A stretch of DNA of 64,000 nucleotides from Candidatus Bathyarchaeota archaeon (GTDB lineage Archaea > Thermoproteota > Bathyarchaeia > TCS64), in the NCBI GenBank assembly GCA_963771885.1, contig CAVYVF010000007.1, positions 32,001 to 96,000 of the forward strand. The letters are read 5' to 3'. The translations under genes were made by a program, and so were the position numbers. Under the pieces are notes generated by a model. The model worked only from the letters and a program-made list of their open reading frames with translations, was not told where the DNA came from and searched no databases. This document shows, piece after piece, positions 31,348 to 47,674 of the stretch (position 1 is the first letter of the stretch; every line of letters begins with the position of its first letter).

Positions 31348-31863
31348 ATGACCGATGGTAAGGAATCATGCGGATGCGGAACCGGCGAGACACCATGTGG
31401 ATGTATGGAGAAGAATGAGCATGGCGAGAAGAGGCTGCAACCGGTCAAGGCGCCGAGGATCTACCGCGAGCGCAGGCCAGTTAAGGGCGAGGCCGTCACG
31501 ATCATTGACGTGGAGTTCAGTAGCTCCGGAATCAACCTGACCGACGCCTGGAGCAGGGCCGTGCTTCGAGGCGACATCCACGAGATCATGATATGGAACC
31601 CATTGGGGGAGGAGGGCGTAGACGCGGCCGCAATAGCCTTCATCGAGGTCATGCAGGGTGGTAACATTGTCAACGGCGACGAGGTTAGGGTTGATGGCGA
31701 GCCGATAGGCAACCTCGCGGGCTTCGACTACAACCACATGCCCAACCACATGAACATAGTTGTGGAGACGAAGACGTCGAAGGTACCTCTCAAGCTGGGG
31801 AGCGTCTTCGAGTTCGCGCCGAACCCGATGCTATCCCTTCTTGGACAAGAGGACTGCTGTTAG
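31348..31863 (+). CDS. Conserved hypothetical protein (DUF6917-like)
   Basis: SRAV..DIHE, GFDYNHMPNHMNIV motif; Cys-rich termini. Confidence 0.6.
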   Translation: MTDGKESCGCGTGETPCGCMEKNEHGEKRLQPVKAPRIYRERRPVKGEAVTIIDVEFSSSGINLTDAWSRAVLRGDIHEIMIWNPLGEEGVDAAAIAFIEVMQGGNIVNGDEVRVDGEPIGNLAGFDYNHMPNHMNIVVETKTSKVPLKLGSVFEFAPNPMLSLLGQEDCC

Positions 31864-32406
31864 GCGAGTTTATTGAAGTCGATGTCGTCCGCCTTCATCA
31901 TCTTGGCGAATCTGCCGCCGAAGATGGAGTTGTGGTGGGCGATTATCTGCTGCGCATTGAGGATTGGTGTGTCATAGGTCGTGTGCGCGTCCTCGGCGAC
32001 AGTGACGTCGTACTCGAGGCTGTAGGCTCGGCGCACAGTGGTGTCGACGCACCAGTCGCTCTGGATGCCAGCTACTATTAGCTTGTTTATGCCCCTCTTA
32101 TCAAGTTCATCCTTCAGGCTTGTGTGGTAGAAAGCGTCGGGAGTCGGCTTGTTGACGACGAGCTCGCCGGGCATCGGCGCGATGGCGGGGTTGATAGGCC
32201 ACCCCTGCGTACCGGGCTCGAACGGTGACCCCTTCGGCGCCGTCGTGCTGGACGAATATTACAGGCACACACGCTTCTCTGGCTCGCGTAACGAGCCCCT
32301 TCATACGTGCTAGGTACTCCTCACCATTGTATGCTAGGCGCTTTAGCTCAGGTATGAAGAACGCCATCTGGACGTCGATAATCAGGAGAGCCGCCTTTCC
32401 GCCCAT
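31860..32406 (-). CDS. Isochorismatase-family cysteine hydrolase (frameshift near 32225)
   Basis: LLIIDVQ, KPTPDAF, GIQSDWCVDTT, DAHTT. Confidence 0.85.
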
Positions 32407-32492: not shown

Positions 32493-33134
32493 ATGGGCTG
32501 GCAGGATATTCAGGGCGCGACAACCGTAGGCATAATCTGCAAGGGCGGCGTGATTCTCGCCTCGGAGAAGCGCGTCACATGGGGCAACATGCTTACCAGC
32601 AGGGGGGGCATGAAGGTCTTCAAGCTCAACGACAGGATAGGTCTCGCCTTCGCCGGCCTCATGAGCGACATGCAGGCACTGACGCGGGAGGTCTCAGCCT
32701 ACGCCAAGCTCTACGAGCTTGATAATAATCACCCTATCGGCGTCAAGGCGATGGGCAAGCTCGTCAGCAACATGCTCTTCCAGCGCAGGATGTTCCCCCT
32801 CTACATGGAGACCCTCGTAGGAGGAATGGACGATGAAGGTCCCCAGCTCTTCAGCATGGACCCGGTTGGCAGCCTGATCCCTGATCCTTTCATCACTGCC
32901 GGCACCGGCGCTGCGATCGCTATGGGCGTGATCGAGGCGGAGTACAAGGAGGGCATGAGCATGAAGGAAGGCGCAGATCTCGTTCTCAAGTCGATTAAAG
33001 CCGCCGTGTCCCGCGACATCGCCAGCGGCGACGGCGTGGACATGCTCCTCATTACTAAGAGACGGTGTCGAGGAGCGCTATTTCAACCTCAGGAAGTAGC
33101 CTCGATCAGCTTTATCGATGGCAATTCGCTATAG
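32493..33134 (+). CDS. psmB: Second 20S proteasome beta subunit (Ala at the Thr1 position; C-terminus probably frameshifted)
   Basis: G/ATTVG, EKRVT, GLMSD, DPVGS, RDIASGD. Confidence 0.9.
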   Translation: MGWQDIQGATTVGIICKGGVILASEKRVTWGNMLTSRGGMKVFKLNDRIGLAFAGLMSDMQALTREVSAYAKLYELDNNHPIGVKAMGKLVSNMLFQRRMFPLYMETLVGGMDDEGPQLFSMDPVGSLIPDPFITAGTGAAIAMGVIEAEYKEGMSMKEGADLVLKSIKAAVSRDIASGDGVDMLLITKRRCRGALFQPQEVASISFIDGNSL

Positions 33135-35093: not shown

Positions 35094-35398
35094 TCTATTC
35101 TACCTCCAAATACACGAGACGAGTATAAATAATATAAGGCGGTATGAAAGAATGTTACATGCTTGAGTTATGTAGTGAATGCTATTATTCAACTAATTAA
35201 TTCACTATGATAAAATGAAGTTGGGTGCCTATATTTAGAGCCAATTATATTGACATTTACTATCCATACAATCTTTATCGAGAAAATAAACGTTTAAATA
35301 TCCTGCAATCCCCCTCAGACGAAATTAAAGGATTAACAGTTGGGATACATCCACGGGGAAAAACATTCTGCGGAGTTTTGTGGGTGGAATAACAGCAT

Positions 35399-37346
35399 TT
35401 GATTGAGTCACTCTACCAGATCGGCCTGCTCCTCCTGATCCTGAGCATCTTCTACCCCTTCGCTGTATTCATTAAGCGGAGCAGTGCCCCGCGGGCTCTC
35501 TCTAACACGTCCCTGATACTCTCCTCCCTACTGCTCACCGTGGCGTCCGTCCTACTCCTGCTCGACGGAAATGAGGTGGCTATCTTCAGCCACGTCTTCG
35601 CCCCGAGCCTCACCCTCTCCTTATCCGTCGACCGCCTCTCCGCATTCTTCGTTCTCGTGGTCTCCATCGTCTCCCTGAGCGTCGGGATATTCACGCCCGG
35701 TTACTTCCACCACGTCGAGTCCGAGGTACGCCGCAGCGTGGTCACATCCACAACAAGCATCTTCGTCGCCTCGATGCTCCTACTAGTCGTATCGCGTGAC
35801 ACTTTCTCGTTCCTCCTTTTCTGGGAGGCGATGAGCCTCTCCTCCTTCATGCTCGTCATGACGAGCTATGAGGCGAGGGAGGCGGGGAAGGCGGGGCTGT
35901 TCTACTTCGCGATGACGCAGCTGAGCACAATGTGCCTGATGGCGGGTTTCCTCGCCCTCTACGCGTTGACGGGTTCCTATTCGATCCCCTTCGCAGGCGT
36001 GATTGACCCGACTGTCCTCAGCATAATATTCGTAGTGCTCTTCATTGGCTTAGGCATCAAAGCGGGCGTCGTGCCGTTTCACAAGTGGCTTCCCTATGCC
36101 CACCCGGCGAGCCCCTCGAACGTCTCCGCTCTCATGTCAGGCGTCATGATAAAGGTCGCGATCTACGGCCTGATACGCTTCGTCTCCGGCGTCGCGTTCC
36201 CGCCGACATGGTGGGGTGGGCTCATTCTAGTCGCCGGCACCGTCTCCGCCGTCCTCGGCGTCGTCTACGCGATGAAGGAGCACGACGTCAAGCGCCTCCT
36301 CGCTTACCACAGTATCGAGAACGTCGGCATAATACTCGTCGCCTACGGGTTGAGCGTCAGTCTTCTCCAGCTACGGGCTCGCCGACCTAGCGAATCTCTG
36401 CCTCGTTGCCTCACTCTTCCACACCCTCAACCACGCCCTCTTCAAGAGCCTCCTCTTCATGACTGCGGGCTCGGTCATCAACGCGACTGGGCTGCGGAAC
36501 GTGGAGGAGCTTGGGGGGCTGATCAAGAGGATGCCCTACACGGCTGTTCTCTTCCTGATTGGGGCGGTCGCCATCTCGGGTCTGCCTCCCTTCAACGGCT
36601 TCGTGAGTGAGCTGATGATCTTCCAGGCGTTCTTCGCGGGGTGGCGCGTCGGAGGACCACTTGAGTCGGCGGTTATGCTTGCTTGCCTCGCCGTCTTTGC
36701 TCTAACGAGCGCCCTCGCCGCCGCTTGTTTCGTCAAGCTCTTCGGGACCATGTTTCTAGCAGCGCCGCGGAGCGAGGAGGCGGGTGAGGCACACGAGGTC
36801 AGGGGAGGGATGTTAGCCGGCCCCGCGATCCCGGCGGTGCTCTGCGTACTACTCGGGGTCTTCTCCTACCAGTTCCTCGCCCCCCTGGGGCTGGGCGCCT
36901 ACGTGCCAAACATGGCGGTCTTCGGGGTCGCCCTCCTCGTCTCTGGGGCCGCGGTCTTCGCCATCATCCGACTGTTCTCCAGCCGCGAGACACGCGTCTC
37001 TGAGACCTGGGGCTGCGGCATACATGAGCAGGACAGCCGCATGGAGTACACGCCTTCCGGCTTCTCCGAGCCCATCATGATAATCTTCAGGCAGATTTAC
37101 CGGACGCAGGAGCGCCTCGACCTCACCTACTATGACAGGAACCGCGTCATCCTACGCGGGGGTCTCGCCGAGGTGCGCCTCGTCAAGCTCTTTGAGGACC
37201 GGCTCTACCTCCCCGCGGCGAACGCGGCGCTCCGCGTCTCCGAGGCCTTTAACAGGGCGCAGGAGGAGCCACTCAGCGACTCCTACTTTCTCTACATCTT
37301 CGCGGCATGCCTCGCGCTTCTCATCGCCGGGGGGCTACTGCTATGA
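35399..37346 (+). CDS. hyfB: Ehr/Hyf antiporter-like subunit (HyfB/NuoL-like), frameshift near 36360
   Basis: FWEAMS, GIKAGVVPFHKWLPYAHP, LAYHSIENVG, GLPPFNGF, TWGCG. Confidence 0.85.
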
Positions 37347-38284
37347 TAGAGCAACTAACCTACGTCGCCCTGAACACGCTCGTCTTCTTACTCGTCTCGC
37401 CGCTGTTCGTCAGCCTCGTGAAGAAGGTGAAGGCGTGGTGTCAGGGGAGGCGGGGGCCGCCGCTCCTACAGGGCTATTACAACGTCGCGAAGCTATTGCG
37501 TAAGGAGGTAGTCTACTCCTCGACATCCTCGTGGGTTATGCGGTTCACCCCTTATCTGAGCATGTCCGTCCTTGCTGTCGCGTCTCTGGCGGTGCCGCTC
37601 GTGCTCGTGCCCGGCGACCTCTGGGGCCTAGGCAACGTGATACTGCTCATCTACGCGCTGGCGCTCGCCAAGTTCTTCATGGCGCTCTCTGGCCTCGACG
37701 CGGGCAGCACCTTCGGCGGCATGGGAGCGAGCCGCGAGATGAGCCTCTCGGCCGTCTTCGAGCCCGTCGTCATAATGGTCTTCGCTGCCCTCAGTTACCT
37801 GCTCCACACTTCAGACGTGCCGCAGATGCTCGGCCTCGGGATCGGGGCACCTCTAATACTGATCCACCCGACGCTCATTCTGCTCCTAATCAGCCTTTTC
37901 ATAATTCTAATAGTCGAGACGGCGCGGGTGCCTGTGGACAATCCGGAGACCCACCTCGAGTTGACGATGATTCACGAGGCTATGATACTGGAGCAGTCGG
38001 GGCGCAACCTCGCACTGATGGAGTACAGCTACGCGCTGAAGAACACCCTCTTCATCGCCCTGCTAGTAAACCTCGCGTTTCCCTGGGGGCTGACGACTGA
38101 GCTGAGCCTCGTGCCCATCTGCGTAGGCGTCGCCTTATTCCTAGCTAAGGGCGTCTTGGCTTCCCTACTCATCGGGCTCGTCGAGTCGAGCCTCGCCAAG
38201 TACCGCCTCTTCAGGATGCCGAGCATGTTCACGGTGGTCCTGTTCTTCTCTTTCCTCACGATAATCCTGGAGGTGTTCAGTTAA
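37343..38284 (+). CDS. hyfC: Ehr/Hyf membrane subunit (HyfC/NuoH-like)
   Basis: QGRRGPP, GGMGASRE, ETARVPVDNPETHLELTMIHEAM. Confidence 0.9.
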   Translation: MIEQLTYVALNTLVFLLVSPLFVSLVKKVKAWCQGRRGPPLLQGYYNVAKLLRKEVVYSSTSSWVMRFTPYLSMSVLAVASLAVPLVLVPGDLWGLGNVILLIYALALAKFFMALSGLDAGSTFGGMGASREMSLSAVFEPVVIMVFAALSYLLHTSDVPQMLGLGIGAPLILIHPTLILLLISLFIILIVETARVPVDNPETHLELTMIHEAMILEQSGRNLALMEYSYALKNTLFIALLVNLAFPWGLTTELSLVPICVGVALFLAKGVLASLLIGLVESSLAKYRLFRMPSMFTVVLFFSFLTIILEVFS

Positions 38285-38967
38285 TGGACGCCACCTTCTA
38301 CGCCGAGGTGTTACGGGTGCTGCTGGTCCTCGTCGTCGTTACGGCGGCTGCTATAGTTGTCATGAGGGATATCCCCTTCCTCTTCGCGAGCTATGCCTTC
38401 CAGTCGCTGCTTCTCGCCCTTGTCGCCTTCGCCCTCTACGCGGAGACAGGTGAGCTCTCCCTCATCGGCGTGGGTGTGGCGACGATCGTGGGGAAGGTGC
38501 TGATAATCCCCCGCTTCATGGGCAAGATACAGGGCGACATGCGTGTGCGCCGCGACATAGAGTTCCGCATCTTAAGCCCAACGACGAGCGTGTTACTCTC
38601 CGTAGCCGTGCTCTTCATCGTCCACTACTCCTTCCAGCGCTTCGCCGCCGTGCTGGAGCTCGACACCGTCCACTACCTCGGCACAATCTTCGGGCTCCTC
38701 CTCGTCTTCATGGGGCTGCTAGTCATGTTCAGCAGGAGGAGGCCGATCACGAAGATAGTAGGCTACCTCACGATGGAGAACGGGGTTCTCCTCTTCAGCC
38801 TATTCTTCGCGGCGCTGCCCCTCGTCTTCGAGGTTATAGTGACCGTCGACCTGATCGTCGTCGTCCTGCTGGCGACTTTACTCGCCTTCGGGGAGTCCTC
38901 GGACGTTGACACCTTCCAGAGGCGTCTAGTTCCGTTCAAAACGTGGATACTGGAGGGGGACGAATGA
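38284..38967 (+). CDS. hyfE: Ehr/Hyf membrane subunit (HyfE/NuoK-like)
   Basis: Hydrophobic, GYLTMENG motif, operon position. Confidence 0.85.
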   Translation: MDATFYAEVLRVLLVLVVVTAAAIVVMRDIPFLFASYAFQSLLLALVAFALYAETGELSLIGVGVATIVGKVLIIPRFMGKIQGDMRVRRDIEFRILSPTTSVLLSVAVLFIVHYSFQRFAAVLELDTVHYLGTIFGLLLVFMGLLVMFSRRRPITKIVGYLTMENGVLLFSLFFAALPLVFEVIVTVDLIVVVLLATLLAFGESSDVDTFQRRLVPFKTWILEGDE

Positions 38968-40400
38968 TAGAGTTTTACGTTCTCCTCTGCATGGCGGCGC
39001 TCGCAATCGTGGTTGCCTCGAAGAGCAGGGTGCAGATGAACTCGGTGACCGTGGTCTACGCCTTCGTCTGTCTCGCTCTCACCGTATACGGGCTCACAGT
39101 TCCCTTGCCCATCTACTACTTCGCCGACCACCTGTTCGCCTTGACGAACCTCGGGCTCTACTTGGTCGCCGGCGCCTCGGCGGTCTTCCTCCTCGCCGCC
39201 GTCTACAGCTACGGCTACGTCCAGGACCTGCTAGACGTGGAGGCGATGAAGAGGGAGAACCTTCGCCTCTTCTATATCTCTTTCAACCTGCTGCTGCTCT
39301 CCGTAGTACTCGCGTTCCTCTCGAACAGCGTTGCCCTCTTCTGGGTCTTCACGGAGCTGACGACGCTCTTCTCCTGCGTGCTGGTTGTGTCGGTTAGAGA
39401 CAGGGGCGCGATACACGCTGCGCTAAACTACGTCTTCGTCGCCTCGGCGGCGATGATTTTCAGCTTTATGGGGATACTTATGGCTTATGCTCTCACGACT
39501 GGTGGCACCGTCGCCCTCAACTGGGACAGCCTCGCCGCCGGTGCGTCCTCATTCAACGCCCATCTACTCGGGCTAGCGGCGGTCTTCATGTTCGTGGGCT
39601 TCGCCGCCAAGGCGGCCGTCGCGCCGTTCCACACGGGGCTCGCCCCCGTCTACGGGAGGGGTCCCGTCATATTCAGCGTGTTGTCGGGCTCGCTGCTGAC
39701 AGTCGGGGTGTACGGACTCATCCGAGTCAACTCGATTGTCTCCGGGACAGCCGCAGGCTCCGCCTTCTCGATGCTCCTCATAGGCTTCGGCGTGTTCACC
39801 ATCGCGGTGGCGGGCTTCACGATGCTCGCCCAGAGGAGGCTTCGCAGGCTCTTCGCCTTCTCAAGTGTAGAGAATATGGGTGTGGCGCTGATCGCAGTCG
39901 GCGTTGGGACGCCTGTGACGCTCCTCTGGGTGCTCTATCACCTCGTGGCGCACGGGTTCGCCAAGTCGCTGATCTTCTTCAGTCACGGCATTCTTCGCGT
40001 CCAGTACCGGAGCGTGGATGATGGGAAGGTGGTCAACCTGATCAGGCTTCAGCCGCTGGCGCTTGCTGGGCTCGTGGTGGGGAGCGCAGCTGTGATAGGG
40101 GCACCCCTCCTCCCCCTCTTCCTATCGAAGTTTTTCATACTATCAGAGCTAGCGAAGCTATCCCCTATCTTGCTGGGGCTAACGCTGCTCCTGCTCGCTA
40201 TAGTAGCGATCGCCGTGGGATATTCATTGATACACGTTGTGACACGTGTTGAGGAGGGTGGGCCGAAGCCCGTCTCGGTCACCCCTTCGATGTGGGCGCC
40301 GATCGCGGTGTTGATCCTTGTATTATTCGTTCTCGGCTTGGCAATGCCGGAGGGACTACATGCAGTCCTCGCCGGTGCCCTAGCCGAACTGGGGGTCTGA
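38964..40400 (+). CDS. hyfF: Ehr/Hyf antiporter-like subunit (HyfF-like)
   Basis: WVFTELTT, GFAAKA..PFH, AFSSVENMG, HGFAKSL. Confidence 0.85.
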   Translation: MIEFYVLLCMAALAIVVASKSRVQMNSVTVVYAFVCLALTVYGLTVPLPIYYFADHLFALTNLGLYLVAGASAVFLLAAVYSYGYVQDLLDVEAMKRENLRLFYISFNLLLLSVVLAFLSNSVALFWVFTELTTLFSCVLVVSVRDRGAIHAALNYVFVASAAMIFSFMGILMAYALTTGGTVALNWDSLAAGASSFNAHLLGLAAVFMFVGFAAKAAVAPFHTGLAPVYGRGPVIFSVLSGSLLTVGVYGLIRVNSIVSGTAAGSAFSMLLIGFGVFTIAVAGFTMLAQRRLRRLFAFSSVENMGVALIAVGVGTPVTLLWVLYHLVAHGFAKSLIFFSHGILRVQYRSVDDGKVVNLIRLQPLALAGLVVGSAAVIGAPLLPLFLSKFFILSELAKLSPILLGLTLLLLAIVAIAVGYSLIHVVTRVEEGGPKPVSVTPSMWAPIAVLILVLFVLGLAMPEGLHAVLAGALAELGV

Positions 40401-40404
40401 TGAA

Positions 40405-41952
40405 ATGACTACGATTCGCGAGTTAGCGCTAGGGCTCTTCGAGGGCATAGTGATGCACGAGGCGCATAACGAGTGCTACTTCTCAGTCGATGAGCCACAC
40501 TTCCACGATGCTATCAACGCACTATCAGGCGCCGGCTTCGGTCTCATGGGGCTCTTCTGCGTCGAGGGCTTCGAGGGCGAGGCGCTTAGCATCCTCTACG
40601 CCTTTGAGAAGAAGGACGCGGAGGGCATCCTCTTCATAGTCAGGGGCGTCGTGGGCGGCGTCGCCTCGATTGCCGACATCTACCCATCCGCCTCTTGGTA
40701 CGAGCGCGAGGCTGCCGACGGCTTCGGTATCCGCTTCGCCGACGCCTTCGACAGGCGCCGCCTTTTCCTGCACGAGGTCTACCCCGAGGGCTTCCACCCG
40801 CTCCAGAAGCTGTTCGTGAACGGCCCCATGAAGCTGGGCGGCGCGAGGGCTGAGGAGTACCGCTTCAAGCGCGTCTCCGGTGAAGGCGTCTACCAGATAC
40901 CCGTCGGCCCCGTCCACGCAGGCGTTATCGAGCCCGGCCACTTCCGCTTCAGCGTTATCGGCGAGTCCGTTTTCAGCCTCGAGCTCAGGATGTTCTGGAA
41001 GCATAGGGGCGTCGAGAAGCTCTCCGAGGGGCGCATGCCCGCCGACTGCGTTAGGATCGCCGAGTCGATAAGCGGTGACGAGTCCGCGTCGAACGCACTC
41101 GCCTACTGCATGGCGGTCGAGCGTATATCAGGAGCATCCGTCCCCGAGAGGGGGTGGGCCCTAAGGACGGTCTACGCGGAGCTAGAGCGCATCTACGCCC
41201 TTCTCGGCGATCTCGCCGGGATGGTTGTTGACGTAGCCTATCCTGTGGGCGCTAGCCCATTCTTCATCCTCAGGGAGGAGATTCTCAGGTGGAACGCCTC
41301 CCTGACCGGTTCACGCTTTCTTAAGAAGGCGGTGCGCCTCGGTGGTGCCGTCGACCCGGGGGATGAGAAGCTCGGCGAGCTAGTATTATATCTCGAGCGG
41401 TTTACGACACGCTTCTCGGAGACATGGAGGCACGTTGTAAACAACCCGAACGTTGTGGACAGGTTTGAGACGACGGGCGTGCTGAAGACGGAGCTCGTGT
41501 CTCTGCTGCACGTCACGGGGCCCGTAGCTCGGGCGTCTGGTGTCGCAGTCGATACGCGCGTTGATCATCCCTATGGTGTCTACCCGGAGGTCTTCAAGGA
41601 GATTGGACCGCAGAGCGGCGGCGACGTCATGGCGAGGTTCCAGCAGAAGTCGGGGGAGGTGCTGGCCTCGGCTACGATAATCAAAGGGATCGTGGAGAAG
41701 ATGCCACAAGGCGCGGCAAGGGTTGATGTGCCTGTCAGGGACGGCTTCGCCTGCGGGCTCGTCGAGTCGCCTCGCGGCCAGAACCTCCACTGGGTCCACA
41801 TACGCGGCGGGCGGGTGAGCCGGTATAAGGTGAGGACTGCCTCCTACTGCAACTGGCAGGCTATGGAGCATGCCGTCCCCGGTAACATCGTCCCCGATTT
41901 CCCGCTCGTCAACAAGAGCTTCAACCTCTCCTACGCGGGGACGGACCTCTAG
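40405..41952 (+). CDS. Ehr large subunit (fused NuoC/D-like, HyfG-like) without NiFe-binding Cys
   Basis: WYERE, VGPVHAGVIEPGHFRF, KHRGVEK; AESISGDE in place of RxCGxC and NKSFNLSY in place of DPCxxC. Confidence 0.9.
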   Translation: MTTIRELALGLFEGIVMHEAHNECYFSVDEPHFHDAINALSGAGFGLMGLFCVEGFEGEALSILYAFEKKDAEGILFIVRGVVGGVASIADIYPSASWYEREAADGFGIRFADAFDRRRLFLHEVYPEGFHPLQKLFVNGPMKLGGARAEEYRFKRVSGEGVYQIPVGPVHAGVIEPGHFRFSVIGESVFSLELRMFWKHRGVEKLSEGRMPADCVRIAESISGDESASNALAYCMAVERISGASVPERGWALRTVYAELERIYALLGDLAGMVVDVAYPVGASPFFILREEILRWNASLTGSRFLKKAVRLGGAVDPGDEKLGELVLYLERFTTRFSETWRHVVNNPNVVDRFETTGVLKTELVSLLHVTGPVARASGVAVDTRVDHPYGVYPEVFKEIGPQSGGDVMARFQQKSGEVLASATIIKGIVEKMPQGAARVDVPVRDGFACGLVESPRGQNLHWVHIRGGRVSRYKVRTASYCNWQAMEHAVPGNIVPDFPLVNKSFNLSYAGTDL

Positions 41953-41960
41953 GTGATTTC

Positions 41961-42483
41961 ATGGAGACTGTAAAGAGACTCATTGGGCGGAAGGCGACGG
42001 AGGATTTCGTGCTACGCGATGAGGAGTTTGAGGCTGCTCGGCGCACAGCTCAAGCGTCAAATAGACGCCGTCTTCGGGCGAAGCATCGCGATACGCGAGG
42101 TCGACACTGGCAGCGACAACTCACCCGAGATTGAGTTGAACAACCTCGCCACCCCCTACTATGATATAGAGCGCTTCGGTGTGAGCTTCGTCGCATCGCC
42201 CCGCCACGCGGATGTCCTCGCTGTAACCGGCCCAGTCACCCACAACATGGTGGAAGCGCTTCTGAAGACATACGAGGCGACGCCCAGTCCCAAATTCGTC
42301 GTCGCTGTGGGGGATGACGCTTGCGGCACAGGCGTGTTCAGCGAGTCTTATGCGGTTATCGGCTCCGTTGAGAAGGTGATACCCGTCGATCTGAAGATAC
42401 CTGGCGACCCACCGACGCCTACAGAGATAATGAAGGGATTGCTCGCCCTCATGAGGGTGGCGCGTGAAAGACGCGGGGCATAA
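41961..42483 (+). CDS. Ehr small subunit (NuoB/HyfI-like) with Fe-S ligands replaced; frameshift near 42025
   Basis: ATG after AGGTGA RBS; YDIERFG, SPRHADVL; GSDNSPE, GDDAC and PGDPP at the usual Cys positions. Confidence 0.9.
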
Positions 42484-42511: not shown

Positions 42512-43057
42512 TCAGACCTTCTCCGGAGGTAGCAGCCTCCAGAACGGCACCCAGCGCCCCGTCTTCAGGTTATAGAACCAGGACTCGTCGACTTTCTTCA
42601 GAAGCCGCTCCGTTATAGCAGCAATCAATGGGTAGTATGTATTCTCCACCTCGACGCTCGCCGAATCCACGGGGACCAGCCCAGCCCCGTATTCCTCGGC
42701 ACGGTCCTTCAACGCTGTGCAGGTCATATCGAAGGTCTTCACAACCCTCAGCCCCTGACTCATCACGGGGACGAATGGGTAGGACCTACAGATGGCGGGG
42801 CGGTAAGCGTGCATGAAGCAGCCGCCGAGCCCCCTATGCGGGCATGAGCTCCGACGCATCTGATATGCTATTACCTCGAAGCTAGGGTCCTTCGGGTTCC
42901 TGCCTACCCCGTAGGCGGGTCTCACGTCCCCTTTCCTGAACAACTCGACCTCGCCGGGGAGGAGTGGCAGCCCCTTACGGACACCTTGCCTGTCTATGAG
43001 GAGCCTGTTGCAGCAGACGCCGCAGTTGGCGCAGCGGTACACTATCGGCTTCAGCAA
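42512..43057 (-). CDS. YkgJ-family Zn/Fe-chelating (CxxCxxCC) protein
   Basis: CANCGVCC, CPH..C..H..RPAICRSYPF. Confidence 0.85.
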   Translation of the reverse strand: MLKPIVYRCANCGVCCNRLLIDRQGVRKGLPLLPGEVELFRKGDVRPAYGVGRNPKDPSFEVIAYQMRRSSCPHRGLGGCFMHAYRPAICRSYPFVPVMSQGLRVVKTFDMTCTALKDRAEEYGAGLVPVDSASVEVENTYYPLIAAITERLLKKVDESWFYNLKTGRWVPFWRLLPPEKV

Positions 43058-43061
43058 TCCG

Positions 43062-43358
43062 CTAGAGCCTCTCCAACTTGAAGACCACTGGGCGCATCCC
43101 GTCGCTGCAGCAGCTTATCATGACACCCTTCTCACGTACCCATGGGAAGTCGCCGCCGAGGGCTAGGTGGGTAACGTCCCTGTGTATGTCTGCCCAAGCC
43201 CTCCCACAGAAACCTGCGGGCATCTGCATGTCCTTCGACATATATACGCCATCCATCTTCACGCACTCCGGCGTCAAAGTCGCCGAGGCGTACCTGTCGA
43301 AGACCTCACCCATTCTCACCTTTTGCAGCACTGAAATTCTGACGTCCCTTCCGACCAT
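43062..43358 (-). CDS. TIGR04076-family protein
   Basis: PAGFCGRAW, CCSDGMRPVVFKLER. Confidence 0.8.
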   Translation of the reverse strand: MVGRDVRISVLQKVRMGEVFDRYASATLTPECVKMDGVYMSKDMQMPAGFCGRAWADIHRDVTHLALGGDFPWVREKGVMISCCSDGMRPVVFKLERL

Positions 43359-43590: not shown

Positions 43591-44112
43591 GTGGGGGGAA
43601 AGGGAGACAAATTGGAACCCCCTTCACCGGATGCTAATAGGCTGGTCGATGACATCTACCCCAGCTACGCGGGCTACACCCCCATACAGAGTGCCCTGAT
43701 ACCCATCCTCCAGGAGATACAGAAGAAGGCGGGGTACCTCCCCCCTGCTTCTCTGGCGCGCGTAGCGGAGCTGCTACACATCCCCCCGAGCCAGGTCTAC
43801 GGCGTCGCCACATTCTATCACCAGTTCCGCCTCCGCCCCAAGGGGGAGCACCTAATCACGGTCTGTAGAGGGACCGCCTGCCATGTCAAGGGGTCGCAGG
43901 ACACCATCAACTACATCAACCAGCAGCTCGGCATCAAGGCGCCTCAGGACACGTCGCCGGACGGCGCCTTCACCGTCCAGCAGGTCAGGTGCCTCGGTGC
44001 ATGCGGACTCGCCCCTGTGATAAAGGTCGATGAAACCGTCTACGGGAAGGTCGACCACGCGAAGATCAGGGGCATCCTGAAGGCGATCAGGAAGGGAGGT
44101 AAACCGGAGTGA
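43591..44112 (+). CDS. NuoE/HydC-like [2Fe-2S] subunit
   Basis: VATFY, CRGTAC, CLGAC..APV. Confidence 0.92.
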   Translation: MGGKGDKLEPPSPDANRLVDDIYPSYAGYTPIQSALIPILQEIQKKAGYLPPASLARVAELLHIPPSQVYGVATFYHQFRLRPKGEHLITVCRGTACHVKGSQDTINYINQQLGIKAPQDTSPDGAFTVQQVRCLGACGLAPVIKVDETVYGKVDHAKIRGILKAIRKGGKPE

Positions 44113-45959
44113 ACGGGCTGATGGACCGCTGCGACAAGGATGATACGCTATACGGGGCTGGAGGCATCAGGGTCACCGTCGGGATGAGCACGTGCGGGCT
44201 CGCCTCGGGCGCTCAGGCCGTTTACGACGCGCTCCACGGGGAGTTTGCCCGGAGAGGACTGCACGCGAAGCTTGTCCCCGTTGGGTGCATGGGCTCCTGC
44301 TACGCTGAGGTCATCGTCGAGGTGACCCGGAAGGGCTACCCCACAGCGATATACAGCGACGTGACGCCCACGAAAGTGCCGGATATCCTCGACTCCTATC
44401 TATCGGGGGACGTATCCGGCGCACTTGCACTCAGATCCAAGACCGGGAAGATGAGGGGCGAGGAGACGGTTCCGCTCATAGAAGAGCTGCCCTTCTTTAG
44501 GCACCAGACGAGGAGGGTGCTAAAGAACTGCGGGGTCATCGACCCCGAGTCAATCGACGAGTACATCATCGCAGGCGGCTACCGCGCCCTCTCAAGGGTC
44601 CTCAAGGAGATGACCCCGGAGCAGGTGATAGCAGAGGTCTCCGCCTCCGGGCTCAGGGGGCGCGGAGGGGCGGGCTTCCCCGCGGGGCTCAAATGGAAGT
44701 TCTGCAGGCAGGTCCCCGGCGAGACCAAATACATGATCTGCAACGCGGACGAGGGCGACCCCGGGGCATTCATGAACCGCCTTACGGTCGAGGGCGATCC
44801 CCACAAGGTGCTTGAGGGACTGATAATCGCGGGCTATGCCATCGGTGCACACGAGGGCTACATATTCGTACGCGCCGAGAAGCCTCTCATGGCTGAGCGC
44901 CTTGAGACCGCCATCGCGCAGGCGAGGAAGAACGATCTACTAGGGAACAACATCCTCGGCTCGGGCTTCGGCTTCGACGTTAAGATAATGCTGAGTGCGG
45001 GTGCCTTCGTATGCGGTGAGGAGACGGCGCTCATCGCGGCGATCGAGGGCAAGAGGGCGATGCCCCGGGCGCGCCCGCCGTTCCCCGCCACGCAGGGGCT
45101 GTGGGACAAGCCCACCACGATAAACAATGTCGAGACGCTCGCACACGTCCCTCTCATACTCGCCGAAGGCGCGAAGGAGTATGCTGGCGTCGGCTCTGAG
45201 AAGAGCAAGGGAACCAAGGTCTACTGCCTCGCCGGCGACGTGGAGCGCACCGGCGCCGCCGAGGTCCCTATAGGGACAACCATCAGGAGGCTCGTCTTCG
45301 ATATCGGAGGTGGCGTCCCATTCGGGAAGAAGTTCAAGGCGATACAGATCGGCGGACCCAGCGGCGGCTGCCTCCCCGAGAAGTTCCTCGACCTCCCCCT
45401 CGACTACGAGTCGCTGCAGTCGGCGGGCGCCATCATGGGCTCCGGCGGCATCGTCATAATCGACGAGGACACGTGCATCGTCGACCTCGCCAAGTACTTC
45501 CTCAACTTCACCACCGCCGAGTCCTGCGGGAAGTGCTCCCCGTGCAGGATAGGGCTGCAGAGGATGCTCGAAACCATCACCAGAATCACCGAAGGTAACG
45601 GTACTGATGCGGACCTCGCCGCGCTGCGCGACATATCCGTCGCCGTGGCAGACTCGAGCCTCTGCGCCTTAGGGCGCACGGCGCCTAATCCAGTACTCAG
45701 CACCATGAAGTACTTCCCCGAGGAGTACCAGGCACACGTCGAGGAGAAGCGCTGCCCCGCCCACGCCTGCGTAGCGATGAACAAGGGCTACGCGGTCGAT
45801 GAGGCGGAGTGCAAGGGCTGCGGGCTCTGCGCCAGTAAATGCCCGACGAACTCGATAAACGTCGAAGCCATGAAGGCGAGCATAGACGCCGCCAAGTGCA
45901 TCAGATGCGGGCAATGCGTAAACGAGTGTCCCTTCGGGGCGATTAAGGAGGTGTGGTGA
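44109..45959 (+). CDS. NuoF/HydB-like FMN/NAD(P)H-binding subunit with C-terminal 2x[4Fe-4S]
   Basis: GRGGAGF, NADEGDPGAFM, CGEETAL, GGPSG, CGKCSPC, H..C...C site, two CxxCxxCxxxCP. Confidence 0.92.
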   Translation: MNGLMDRCDKDDTLYGAGGIRVTVGMSTCGLASGAQAVYDALHGEFARRGLHAKLVPVGCMGSCYAEVIVEVTRKGYPTAIYSDVTPTKVPDILDSYLSGDVSGALALRSKTGKMRGEETVPLIEELPFFRHQTRRVLKNCGVIDPESIDEYIIAGGYRALSRVLKEMTPEQVIAEVSASGLRGRGGAGFPAGLKWKFCRQVPGETKYMICNADEGDPGAFMNRLTVEGDPHKVLEGLIIAGYAIGAHEGYIFVRAEKPLMAERLETAIAQARKNDLLGNNILGSGFGFDVKIMLSAGAFVCGEETALIAAIEGKRAMPRARPPFPATQGLWDKPTTINNVETLAHVPLILAEGAKEYAGVGSEKSKGTKVYCLAGDVERTGAAEVPIGTTIRRLVFDIGGGVPFGKKFKAIQIGGPSGGCLPEKFLDLPLDYESLQSAGAIMGSGGIVIIDEDTCIVDLAKYFLNFTTAESCGKCSPCRIGLQRMLETITRITEGNGTDADLAALRDISVAVADSSLCALGRTAPNPVLSTMKYFPEEYQAHVEEKRCPAHACVAMNKGYAVDEAECKGCGLCASKCPTNSINVEAMKASIDAAKCIRCGQCVNECPFGAIKEVW

Positions 45960-46790
45960 TTGAGCATCGAGATAACCATAGACGGGCGCAAGGTCAAGTG
46001 CGAGCCGAACCAGTCGATCCTCGACGTCGCTGAGGCGAATGGGATACACATCCCGACGCTCTGCCACCACCCTCACCTCAGAGCCACTGGCGCGTGCAGG
46101 ATGTGTGTCATCGATCTCGGGCGCCCCGACAGGCTCGAAGCAGCCTGCACGACCCCGGTCGCCCCTAACATGGTCGTCAACACAGCAAACGACAGGGTCA
46201 CGAGGGCGAGGAAGACGACCCTCGAACTCATCCTCTCCAACCTCGGCGTCGAACCAGAGGCGCTAAAAAAGAGCGACGGGAACAAGCTGCTGGAGCTAGC
46301 AAAGGAGCTTGGCGTCGACACGCAAGCCCTCAGGTTCAAGCCGCCGAAGGCGGAGCCGAGACAGGTCGACAGCCGTAACCCCGTCATCATCAGGGACAGG
46401 GACAGGTGTATACTCTGCGGGCGCTGCGTGAGTGCATGCAACGAGCTTCGCCACTACGGCGTCCTCAACTTCGAGGGGCGCGGGTACAACACGGACGTGG
46501 TCTCAGGCCTCGTCGAGCCGCTCCTAGAGTCTGGCTGCGCCTCGTGCGGCGAGTGCGTCGAGGTCTGCCCTACGGGTGCCTTCAAGACGCTGGCGAAGGA
46601 GCTAGTGCAAGGCGAGGTCGACACCCTCATCGAGACGGGTTTGGCCTTGCCCTCCTCGGCTGCGACGCAGTCGGCGAGGAGCAGGCTCGGGTTACCACCC
46701 ATCGATAACAGTGGCGCAGGTGACCTGCCCAAGATCGCGCGTAAAACTAGGCTTCAATGCAAGACCGTTAAGGAGGCTGAAACGCAGTGA
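45960..46790 (+). CDS. NuoG/HydA N-terminal-like ferredoxin subunit ([2Fe-2S]+2x[4Fe-4S]) with HdrC-like tail, no catalytic domain
   Basis: IPTLC..GACRMC..AC, CILCGRCVSAC, CASCGECVEVCP, tail ETGLALP..ARSRLGLPP. Confidence 0.85.
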   Translation: MSIEITIDGRKVKCEPNQSILDVAEANGIHIPTLCHHPHLRATGACRMCVIDLGRPDRLEAACTTPVAPNMVVNTANDRVTRARKTTLELILSNLGVEPEALKKSDGNKLLELAKELGVDTQALRFKPPKAEPRQVDSRNPVIIRDRDRCILCGRCVSACNELRHYGVLNFEGRGYNTDVVSGLVEPLLESGCASCGECVEVCPTGAFKTLAKELVQGEVDTLIETGLALPSSAATQSARSRLGLPPIDNSGAGDLPKIARKTRLQCKTVKEAETQ

Positions 46791-47674
46791 CACACAGCTA
46801 CGCCTTCTTCACAGGGTGCCAGATGCCCATCCGCCAGCCCCACATCGAGTACGTCACGAGGAAGATAATGCCAGAGCTCGGCGTCGAGCTGGTCGACGTC
46901 AAGGGCTTCACATGCTGCCCCGAGCCCGTCGCCGTGGGTCTCCAGGACAGATTCGCCTCGACCGCCATCGCGGCGCGGAACATCGCCGTCGCCGAGGAGC
47001 AGGGAGCAGACCTCATGACAGCCTGCAACGGCTGCTACTTCACGCTCAGGCACGCGGTCGAGGAGCTCCGTGACGCGGGGACGAGGGTTAAGGTGAACGA
47101 GGCACTCGCCGAGACCGGGCACACATACCGAGGAACCGCTTCCGTCAAGCACTTCGCACAGGTTCTCAGGGACGACGTGGGCATCGAGGCGATCAGGCGC
47201 GCGTCAAAGCACCAGCTAACCGGGCTGAACGTCGCTGCGCACACGGGGTGCCACTTCTCAAACCGCATGGGCGAGGACGCCAAGCTCCTCGACACGCTCA
47301 TAGAGGCGACGGGGGCAAAATCGATAGCTTACGAGGATAAGAACCTCTGCTGCGGCTGGACGCTCGGCACCTACGGGAAGCCCGAGGAGGGCTACGCGTG
47401 GCTCAAGAAGAGGCTCGACTCCATGAAGGCGGGAGGAGCAGAATGCATCGCCGTAATCTGTCCCCAGTGCCTGCAGCAGTTCGACATGGGGCAGCTCATA
47501 GCGTCGAGGAAGGTCCAGTTAGCATACAAGCTACCCGCCCTCTTCTACCTGCAACTACTCGGGGTCGCCATGGGGCACACGCCGGAGGAGATGCAACTCA
47601 GTGCTGACAGGGTCAAGGAACCCGCCCTCGACGAGAAACTGAGGAAACTGCGGCGCCTGAGTCCCCGCAAGTGA
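46787..47674 (+). CDS. hdrB: Heterodisulfide reductase subunit B-like (two CCG domains)
   Basis: FTGC, FTCCP, ACNGC, HTGCH, LCCG, ICPQC..QFD. Confidence 0.9.
   Translation: MTHSYAFFTGCQMPIRQPHIEYVTRKIMPELGVELVDVKGFTCCPEPVAVGLQDRFASTAIAARNIAVAEEQGADLMTACNGCYFTLRHAVEELRDAGTRVKVNEALAETGHTYRGTASVKHFAQVLRDDVGIEAIRRASKHQLTGLNVAAHTGCHFSNRMGEDAKLLDTLIEATGAKSIAYEDKNLCCGWTLGTYGKPEEGYAWLKKRLDSMKAGGAECIAVICPQCLQQFDMGQLIASRKVQLAYKLPALFYLQLLGVAMGHTPEEMQLSADRVKEPALDEKLRKLRRLSPRK

Follow-up and report, generated by a model that had tools for sequence, protein, structure and literature searches.

A cluster-less Ehr operon in a sediment archaeon: a complex I relative that may move ions without redox chemistry

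Results

Gene content of the operon

The window, a stretch of 64,000 nucleotides from a sediment archaeon (Candidatus Bathyarchaeota), carries six co-oriented genes, ehrABCDLS, which encode a relative of respiratory complex I (Table 1). Their composition and order, together with a large subunit that has no Ni-Fe ligands, uphold the identification of a six-gene Ehr operon in the initial annotation, and the gene content likewise agrees with its statement that no ferredoxin is encoded there. A TATA-like element about 100 nt 5' of ehrA, in an intergenic region of 34% GC, may act as the promoter.

The initial annotation was right about the six co-oriented genes but overlooked frameshifts in ehrA and ehrS. 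One extra base near 36358 splits ehrA into ORFs 35399-36610 and 36459-37346, and another near 42037 in ehrS puts the motifs in a different frame from the ATG at 41961, which lies 523 nt from the stop. Because near-identical contigs (about 97-99% alike) do without these bases, contig X2 lacking the one at 36358 and X1 and X3 the one at 42037/42038, both are probably sequencing errors. Of the 12 full homologues listed as closest, 11 have the start MET(A/L/V/T)(K/R)R, as read in the 41961 frame, and the twelfth starts later.

Table 1. Positions of the genes, motifs and ligand sites of the ehr operon in the window.
Feature	Position	Strand	Remark
TATA-like element TTTAAATA	35293..35300	+	pattern scan; putative promoter
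ehrA, HyfB/NuoL/MrpA-like antiporter subunit, ~648 aa	35399..37346	+	PF00361; PRK08667 positions 1-317 and 351-642
ehrB, HyfC/NuoH-like	37343..38284	+	PF00146
ehrC, HyfE-like	38284..38967	+	PRK11492 match, below its cut-off
ehrD, HyfF/NuoN/MrpD-like	38964..40400	+	profile matches, residue comparison
ehrL, NuoC+NuoD/HycE-like large subunit, 515 aa	40405..41952	+	
Glu176 of EPGHFRF motif	40930..40932	+	kept at 90% or more in every Ehr-type group examined
AESISGDE, RxCGxC remnant	41059..41082	+	E226 and N230 fixed in clade
NKSFNLSYAGTDL, DPCxxC remnant	41911..41949	+	alignment
ehrS, NuoB/MbhJ-fold small subunit, ~173 aa	41961..42483	+	
GSDNSPE: Asp at first cluster-ligand position (GAC 42115), Pro at second (CCC 42124)	42115..42126	+	
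GDDAC: Asp at third ligand position (GAC 42316)	42313..42324	+	alignment to MbhJ
PGDPP: Asp at fourth ligand position (GAC 42406)	42406..42408	+	Asn in most relatives

Loss of metal ligands in the soluble subunits

Aligned to the four Ni-Fe cysteines of HycE (7z0s_E), EhrL carries S223, E226, S509 and G512 instead, which confirms that both NiFe motifs are gone, and it has no C-terminal extension. It retains Glu176, which we take to be the proton-transfer Glu of hydrogenases, and the polar pocket residues H171, H179, H200, D225, E226, N230, N503 and K504 are invariant in this clade. Where NuoD has its quinone-site Tyr, EhrL has Gly224 (RMDY vs SISG). A cluster-less lineage with the ligand set D-V-D-D keeps E176 but not H171, H179, H200, D225, K504 or Y510. 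Loss of the RxCGxC Arg was considered as a general companion of cluster loss and rejected: the Arg is lost in this clade, yet kept in the D-V-D-D (42/42), DTED and CPR groups. There are also lineages whose large subunit retains four Cys.

The model of EhrS has the MbhJ fold (pLDDT 94, TM 0.83), and its D/P/D/D sites align with the four cluster cysteines of MbhJ (6cfw_J), the three altered motifs and their four codons being just as first annotated. A single non-ligand Cys is left, at 42322 (+2 of the third site); it is present in 115 of the best 120 protein matches and replaced by I, V, G or R in the other five, and is thus dispensable. In agreement with the initial annotation, the sequence therefore excludes both a Ni centre and an Fe-S wire held by Cys ligands. 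In the modelled complex of the two subunits (score 0.95, best control 0.01; mark reached by 116/157 solved and 2/215 mismatched pairs), 99% or more of the contacts agree between runs, partner pLDDT is 91 or higher, and S223 of EhrL touches the first Asp of EhrS. Such a pass is expected given the likeness to the solved MBH and FHL, and the convergence of the Asp residues is read from homology to MbhJ only.

Membrane subunits

Charged residues of a complex-I-type ion path are kept in ehrA (E143, K221, H228, K252, H345, K349, E404), ehrB (the acidic E141, E193, D200, E207, E213), ehrC (E165, E183, D189) and ehrD (E131, K216, H223, K334, K389); the E/K/H residues of the membrane arm are invariant within the clade and common to cluster-bearing Ehr. 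Decay of ehrD, which has 15 departures from the consensus (the others at most 5), was considered and set aside, as its 9 closest homologues have the same or similar residues. The operon holds no MrpE/F/G-like gene, and Na+ antiport is therefore not a given. The proposal that the soluble arm caps an Mrp-like antiporter fits the retained membrane residues but not the lack of MrpE/F/G-like genes.

Conservation, selection and repeated origin

Loss of the cluster cysteines is common to the best 120 protein matches, one of which is the EhrS studied here, and is not confined to this genome. Position 1 is Asp in 120/120, position 3 is Asp in 117/120, and position 4 is Asn (109) or Asp (11) throughout, giving the clade consensus D-x-D-N; Asp at positions 1 and 3 is conserved, but the full D/x/D/D pattern belongs to a minority. 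The first Asp is encoded by GAT in 23 cases and GAC in 22. Small-subunit dN/dS has a median of 0.16 and a maximum of 0.25 (20 unsaturated of 990 pairs), and among 40 listed strain variants 30 are synonymous and 10 non-synonymous. Since the substitutions are conserved clade-wide and under purifying selection, neither error nor decay explains them, and relaxed selection and Cys in close homologues, which the initial annotation had named as counter-evidence, are both absent. In the small-subunit tree the clade falls among Ehr-type small subunits. A plasmid search comprised 252 records, with the best rows 52-61% identical.

In one methanogen class, 66 of 251 genomes have the ehr small-subunit gene, and the cluster cysteines are absent from all 40 loci checked, two of them read at two positions only. 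Cluster-less copies occur, among others, in Methanospirillum lacunae (L065), which is in culture, and in a MAG of Methanosarcina barkeri (L049). All 33 proteobacterial Ehr loci keep the four cysteines. Cluster loss arose at least four times, repeatedly to Asp, a single origin being rejected (AU p=0.0013). Across 19 representative cluster-less rows the replacements are D29, E9, S8, N7, G7, A6, V3, P1, T1 and I1, never R, Y, F or W; two or three carboxylates occupy the four ligand positions in 14/19 rows and none in 2/19. A Gly at position 3 often goes with Glu at position 2, and ligand sets differ among lineages (DADN, NEGD, SAES, SVGN, TCGN).

Gene neighbourhood

Of the 40 methanogen loci, 20 have a gene for beta-carbonic anhydrase (beta-CA) no more than 1.5 kb away, where chance would give 0.23, although these represent about three gene orders, perhaps of common origin; CA is present in 227/251 genomes of the class. 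The link is absent outside Methanomicrobia: among 45 GTDB loci of the clade only two, both Methanospirillum, have a CA neighbour, and the D-V-D-D lineage has none in 54 loci, many of them short. In two of the 45 loci the operon sits inside or directly behind A-type ATPase genes. Next to cluster-bearing Ehr, SulP adjoins 15/33 and DabAB 2/33 loci. A CA partner within this genome (92% complete) was sought and rejected: searches for beta-CA (PF00484), alpha-CA (PF00194) and DabA (PF10070) and a gamma-CA motif scan were empty. No redox partner recurs beside the operon across lineages; the NuoE/F/G-like and HdrB-like genes 1.1 kb 3' of it (43591-47674) were rejected as electron input, not being a recurring neighbour of related loci.

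Discussion

We favour, at roughly even odds (about 0.5), the reading that this is a functional cluster-less Ehr, a secondary ion translocator that is coupled to protons, does without redox chemistry and helps to balance pH or CO2/bicarbonate. Redox-free translocation appears the most likely because there is no electron wire, and the neighbours (beta-CA, A-type ATPase, SulP, DabAB) point to acid-base and ion handling; from sequence and models we infer the transport, the ion moved and the physiological role. The four membrane subunits would form a complex-I-type ion path on which the two soluble subunits dock, with neither Ni-Fe site nor Fe-S cluster. The Asp/Asn residues would fill the empty cluster pocket and preserve its negative charge and, with S223 and E176, may provide a polar proton/water relay or a pH-sensing switch into the NuoH-like subunit. 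Given that cluster loss has several origins and is frequent among methanogens, ion movement in this family probably proceeds without electron transfer.

It is possible, though we incline against it, that Ehr is a complex-I-shaped acid-base engine, an ion-gradient-coupled CO2/bicarbonate converter like DAB or NDH-1/Cup. The old Ni-Fe pocket and the Asp nest would then hydrate CO2 or dehydrate bicarbonate, and the proton would travel via E176 and EhrB into the two antiporter subunits, coupling the reaction to ion translocation; protonation of the carboxylate nest, or a bound divalent metal, would take the place of the redox switch, and the proximal cluster would have been discarded at least four times because the family needs no electrons. 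The invariant polar pocket of this clade would suit such a role, as would the CA genes beside the methanogen loci and one NEGD-type locus (L188), the SulP and DabAB genes beside Methylococcales Ehr and, in the accessible parts of the two sources, the Acidithiobacillus caldus hyfBCEFG cluster that adjoins a beta-CA gene (PMC3826726) and the precedent of DAB2, where subunits of the complex I type are able to power the hydration of CO2 (PMC13144422). However, the pocket differs in the D-V-D-D lineage and there is therefore no common catalytic set, CA, SulP and DabA were not found in this genome, a recognisable Zn motif is absent, and a free neighbouring CA would be expected to short-circuit a vectorial one.

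We consider improbable a dedicated Mg/Mn/Ca/Zn site that is built from the Asp/Asn residues and serves to gate or power the membrane arm. Asp, though two base changes away from Cys, does recur in independent lineages at positions 1, 3 and 4, and the prevalence of carboxylates over R, Y, F and W in the cluster-less rows, with Glu at position 2 where position 3 is Gly, is what a metal site might produce; yet the same pattern would be expected if acids merely make up for the lost cluster in charge and hydrogen bonding. The comparison does not establish the three-Asp site first envisaged: position 4 is usually Asn, other cluster-less lineages have S, N, T, E, G or A, and two of the 19 rows have no carboxylate.

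Quite improbable, too, is that the operon is a recent pseudogene in this strain with both frameshifts real, whatever holds for the clade. Two frameshifts lie within 7.1 kb, a search of the 17 other genomes of the genus did not find the operon, which is therefore dispensable, and one relative (L036) keeps just a split small subunit. Nevertheless, the genome has 9 frame changes in 61.3 kb of orthologous genes, which predicts about one for 7.1 kb and makes two unremarkable; both extra bases are missing from the near-identical contigs, there are no in-frame stops, and pN/pS is 0.11.

Very unlikely, finally, is a surviving redox enzyme (Fdh-Ehr or ferredoxin-reducing hydrogenase) that uses an atypical Asp-ligated cluster or the clusters of a partner, for although an Fdh-Ehr complex is proposed in the available part of one source (PMC6349859), Fdh genes occur in the 20-kb locus of 6/40 methanogen loci, the Ehr proteins of Geobacter increase on formate (PMC7894505), and the leftover Cys and the downstream module of the window would fit, none of the four Cys ligands is left, that Cys is replaceable, the RxCGxC Arg is lost in this clade, Gly224 stands at the quinone-site Tyr of NuoD, and the module does not recur.

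Ehr complexes are widespread and their function is not known. Published text treats them as probable redox complexes, with methanogen copies called ferredoxin-reducing or H2-evolving hydrogenases (PMC4704411, PMC11346949), whereas here there are no cluster ligands; we found no published mention of a cluster-less Ehr small subunit, though Ehr itself is published. Because the metal ligands are gone, a large, selected and repeatedly evolved subset would rule out a redox or hydrogenase role for those copies, L065 and L049 included. Cluster-less Ehr thus points to a redox-free function and offers a natural test of how a complex-I-type membrane arm is driven without a redox step.

Comparison with known systems

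The Ehr concept reportedly goes back to Marreiros et al. in 2013. In the accessible parts of the literature Ehr is defined by a group-4-like large subunit without CxxC Ni-Fe motifs (PMC6349859, PMC4378227, PMC10284858). The present operon has such a subunit, with two antiporter-like, a NuoH-like and a HyfE-like subunit, and shares the ehrABCDLS composition and order with Geobacter sulfurreducens GSU0739-45 (PMC7894505) and Methanospirillum hungatei Mhun_1817-1822 (PMC4704411). It differs in the clade-specific E226 and N230, the lost RxCGxC Arg and the small subunit, where 0/4 of the usual cluster cysteines, against 4/4 in the proteobacterial loci, make it an Ehr variant; these cysteines do not belong to the published definitions as far as those parts go.

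With group 4 [NiFe] hydrogenases (E. coli Hyc/Hyf, 7z0s; Pyrococcus MBH, 6cfw) it shares the large and small subunit folds, a HyfB/C/E/F-type arm and the EPGHFR Glu, but it lacks RxCGxC, DPCxxC, the proximal [4Fe-4S] ligands, a ferredoxin-type subunit and the C-terminal extension; the same genome holds two intact group-4-type sets with all Ni-Fe and cluster cysteines. Respiratory complex I (NuoB/C/D/H/L/N) has a homologous core and the same membrane ion-path residues, whereas here the N2 ligands of NuoB are absent, the quinone Tyr of NuoD is Gly and the operon has no NADH module. The redox-free Mrp Na+/H+ antiporter matches in its MrpA- and MrpD-like subunits with conserved Glu/Lys, but where Mrp has MrpE, F and G, the operon instead encodes a NuoH-like subunit plus the soluble arm. 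The soluble arm also differs from that of DAB (DabA/DabB), being of hydrogenase rather than beta-CA fold and free of a Zn motif, and the beta-CA-like DabA (PF10070) was not found in this genome; even so, the accessible part of the DAB source (PMC13144422) describes the same arrangement, a soluble module seated on a proton conductor of complex I type, with no transfer of electrons, and inorganic-carbon genes often neighbour Ehr operons.

Loss of the cluster ligands

The six genes of the Ehr operon, and every motif and codon position quoted in the initial annotation, are present in the sequence, and the products are two antiporter-like proteins and NuoH-like, HyfE-like, NuoC+D-like and NuoB-like proteins (Pfam, NCBIfam). 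Aligned to MbhJ, the Pyrococcus MBH small subunit (6cfw_J), EhrS reads D, P, D and D at the four Cys sites of the proximal Fe-S cluster (positions 1 to 4), and alignment of EhrL to E. coli HycE (7z0s_E) gives S, E, S and G at the four Ni-Fe Cys sites. As an internal control, the Cys motifs are intact in two other group-4-type gene sets of the same genome. Besides these two, the 92%-complete genome encodes two hydrogenase gene sets of group-3 type.

Among the best 120 protein matches, the source protein included, Asp occupies position 1 in 120 and position 3 in 117, position 2 is Pro, Thr or Ala in 119, and Asn (109) outnumbers Asp (11) at position 4, which makes D/x/D/D a minority pattern in the clade and D-x-D-N its consensus. 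Both Asp codons are in about equal use at position 1. The dN/dS check proposed for the small subunit gave a low ratio (median 0.16, maximum 0.25, from the 20 of 990 pairs that were unsaturated), in line with the other tested subunits and indicating selection. Near-identical strain contigs carry 232 differences, and the 40 best-supported listed are 30 synonymous and 10 non-synonymous (pN/pS 0.11). We conclude that the loss of the cluster ligands is real and under selection.

The initial annotation overlooked that ehrA and ehrS are each interrupted by one extra base in the assembly. Read from 41961, ehrS agrees with the N-termini seen in its closest homologues. With 179 ORFs of two congeneric genomes as reference, we found 9 frame changes in 61.3 kb of the source genome, spread over 7 of 60 orthologues; the reciprocal test on those two genomes showed 4 changes in 36.5 kb for one and 2 in 22.9 kb for the other. 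At the source genome's rate a 7.1-kb stretch should contain about one break, so two are ordinary (P ~0.28). Assembly error is the likeliest origin of the extra bases; that the source strain's copy is a pseudogene, a matter separate from mechanism, is improbable. Decay of EhrD, suspected from its divergence, was ruled out, as the departures are fixed in its nine closest homologues.

Features in the source stretch and in fetched homologous loci (L-numbers)
Location	Strand	Feature	Observation
35399..42483		ehrABCDLS	Ehr operon
36358		Extra base in ehrA	Absent in near-identical strain contigs (run X2), which are other than the source genome's own reads
41961		Start of ehrS frame
42037/42038		Extra base in ehrS	Absent in near-identical strain contigs (runs X1, X3), which are other than the source genome's own reads
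31860-32406; 32493-33134	-; +	Isochorismatase-family gene split over two frames; proteasome beta gene with odd C-terminal tail	Both consistent with the assembly indel rate
42512-43358	-	Two small Cys-rich genes directly 3' of the operon, opposite strand	One a weak CxxCxxCC (PF03692) match; other 98 aa, no Pfam hit
43591-47674	+	NuoE-, NuoF-, NuoG-N-like genes, then HdrB-like (CCG) gene	No hydrogenase or Fdh catalytic gene; not conserved beside the Ehr operon
L041:3344-10441; L031:3356-10492		Woesearchaeota operons	Flanked by atpB and atpD of an A-type ATPase, or immediately 3' of its atpD
L036:10001-10444		Split small-subunit gene	Decayed remnant; no other ehr gene 10 kb upstream

Distribution and repeated loss

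Cluster-less Ehr is not peculiar to the source genome. The 80 GTDB loci comprise 45 of the source clade, 2 CPR-like (T-C-D-D) and 33 proteobacterial, all 33 of which keep the four Cys in the same operon. The 45 span Bathyarchaeia, Methanomicrobiales, Methanosarcinales, Woesearchaeota, Altiarchaeota, Dehalococcoidia, Moduliflexus and others. Among named homologues, those from Bathyarchaeota are nearest, and only 2 of 301 genomes of the source organism's class have a match better than 1e-60; a search of the 17 remaining genomes of its genus did not find the operon. Of 251 genomes from the class that includes Methanospirillum lacunae, 66 carry the gene, and the loci fetched from 40 of these carriers, long contigs being favoured, lack Cys at every position read (DTDN 19, DADN 15, DAEN 3, DADT 1; in two the reading covers just positions 3 and 4).

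Across 150 representatives at 50% identity, 91 read C-C-C-C, and another 18, with full coverage, show no more than one Cys, in patterns such as DADN, DVDD, DDDS, NEGD, SAES and TCGN. For the small-subunit tree, 140 of 178 rows covered all four positions, and the ligand columns were taken out; the final 90 rows comprise the full set of 35 cluster-less sequences plus 55 of 101 with four Cys, omitting 4 with two or three Cys (LG+G4, a short alignment of 126 columns). The source clade is one starred group (100/99). Mapping the cluster label takes 8 changes, of which starred branches force 4; the direction, loss and not gain, is an assumption from the hydrogenase outgroup. A single clade of all cluster-less rows was rejected (p-AU 0.0013).

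A scan seeded with a second cluster-less lineage returned 54 loci with an Ehr-type operon of other gene order and other large-subunit motifs, 52 of which read D-(V/I/A)-D-D, so that Asp had independent origins at positions 1, 3 and 4. In these loci (L122-L175) the genes run B-C-D-L-S-A and the small subunit carries a ferredoxin-like remnant at its N-terminus; 11 have a HAD-family gene nearby. L174 has the operon twice in tandem, with four Cys in at least one copy. At L178, L181, L183 and L190, Ehr-order operons, the small subunit has no cluster Cys (DTED, NEGD) and the four Ni-Fe Cys of the large subunit are all present (RLCGVC and LCYSC, or HVCGMC and LCYAC), which on sequence makes them a predicted hydrogenase-like site lacking an electron exit. 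A beta-carbonic anhydrase (CA) gene adjoins L188, a relative of these loci.

Models, neighbours and mechanism

The small-subunit model has the MbhJ fold (pLDDT 94; TM 0.83, rmsd 2.4). The large-small model scored 0.95 against 0.01 for the best control (the mark is attained by 116/157 solved and 2/215 mismatched pairs), with contact agreement of at least 99% and partner pLDDT of at least 91; because like complexes are already solved, it is evidence of likeness, not of binding. In this model S223 is predicted to contact the first Asp of the small subunit. The large subunit keeps E176, E204, E259, E261, R262, D407, D498, S505 and D514 in all groups; conservation of H171, H179, H200, D225, K504 and Y510 does not extend to the second lineage. 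Along the membrane axis the charged residues do not vary within the source clade and are common to cluster-bearing Ehr, and from complex I and Mrp work we take them to act in ion translocation.

We propose, at a probability of roughly one half, that cluster-less Ehr translocates ions in a proton-coupled, redox-free manner and serves pH or inorganic-carbon balance. The acidic nest would stand in for the charge of the lost cluster and may relay or sense protons.

The Ehr operon is a self-contained cassette, and no neighbour recurs across lineages. A CO2/bicarbonate converter like the pmf-driven DabA/DabB is a doubtful alternative. In Methanomicrobia, 20 of 40 loci have a beta-CA gene at a distance of 31-1448 nt versus 0.23 by chance, a linkage in about three gene orders that may have one shared origin, and cluster-bearing proteobacterial Ehr (mostly Methylococcales) neighbours SulP in 15 of 33 loci and DabAB in 2. 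Against a general CA link, CA occurs in 2 of 45 source-clade loci (GTDB set) and in none of 54 loci of the second lineage, and neither beta-CA, alpha-CA nor DabA was found in the 92%-complete source genome. In the cluster-bearing Methylovulum loci L069 and L078, dabA and dabB lie directly downstream of the operon; L069 has two SulP genes ahead and DUF2490 after.

A dedicated divalent-metal site is a distinctly unlikely reading of the substituted positions. Fdh genes occur in 6 of 40 Methanomicrobia loci, and a residual redox role is the least probable mechanism.

Relation to known Ehr complexes

In their accessible text, PMC7304191, PMC7894505, PMC6349859, PMC4758237, PMC4704411, PMC11087674, PMC8691401, PMC4378227, PMC10284858, PMC6688271, PMC6155033, 10.1101/2021.08.23.457424, PMC3826726, PMC11346949 and PMC13144422 define Ehr by the absent Ni-Fe motifs and call its function unknown. 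The same portions of PMC6688271 propose pH homeostasis for Ehr, and those of PMC3826726 describe a beta-CA adjoining a hyfBCEFG cluster. The Methanospirillum operon is regarded as a hydrogenase in the available parts of PMC4704411 and PMC11346949; M. lacunae (L065), a different strain from those named there, lacks all ligands. Our literature search, with most subscription papers, Marreiros et al. 2013 and some supplements outside its scope, returned no statement of small-subunit cluster loss. The source operon belongs to the known Ehr family as a cluster-less variant and does not represent a new system.
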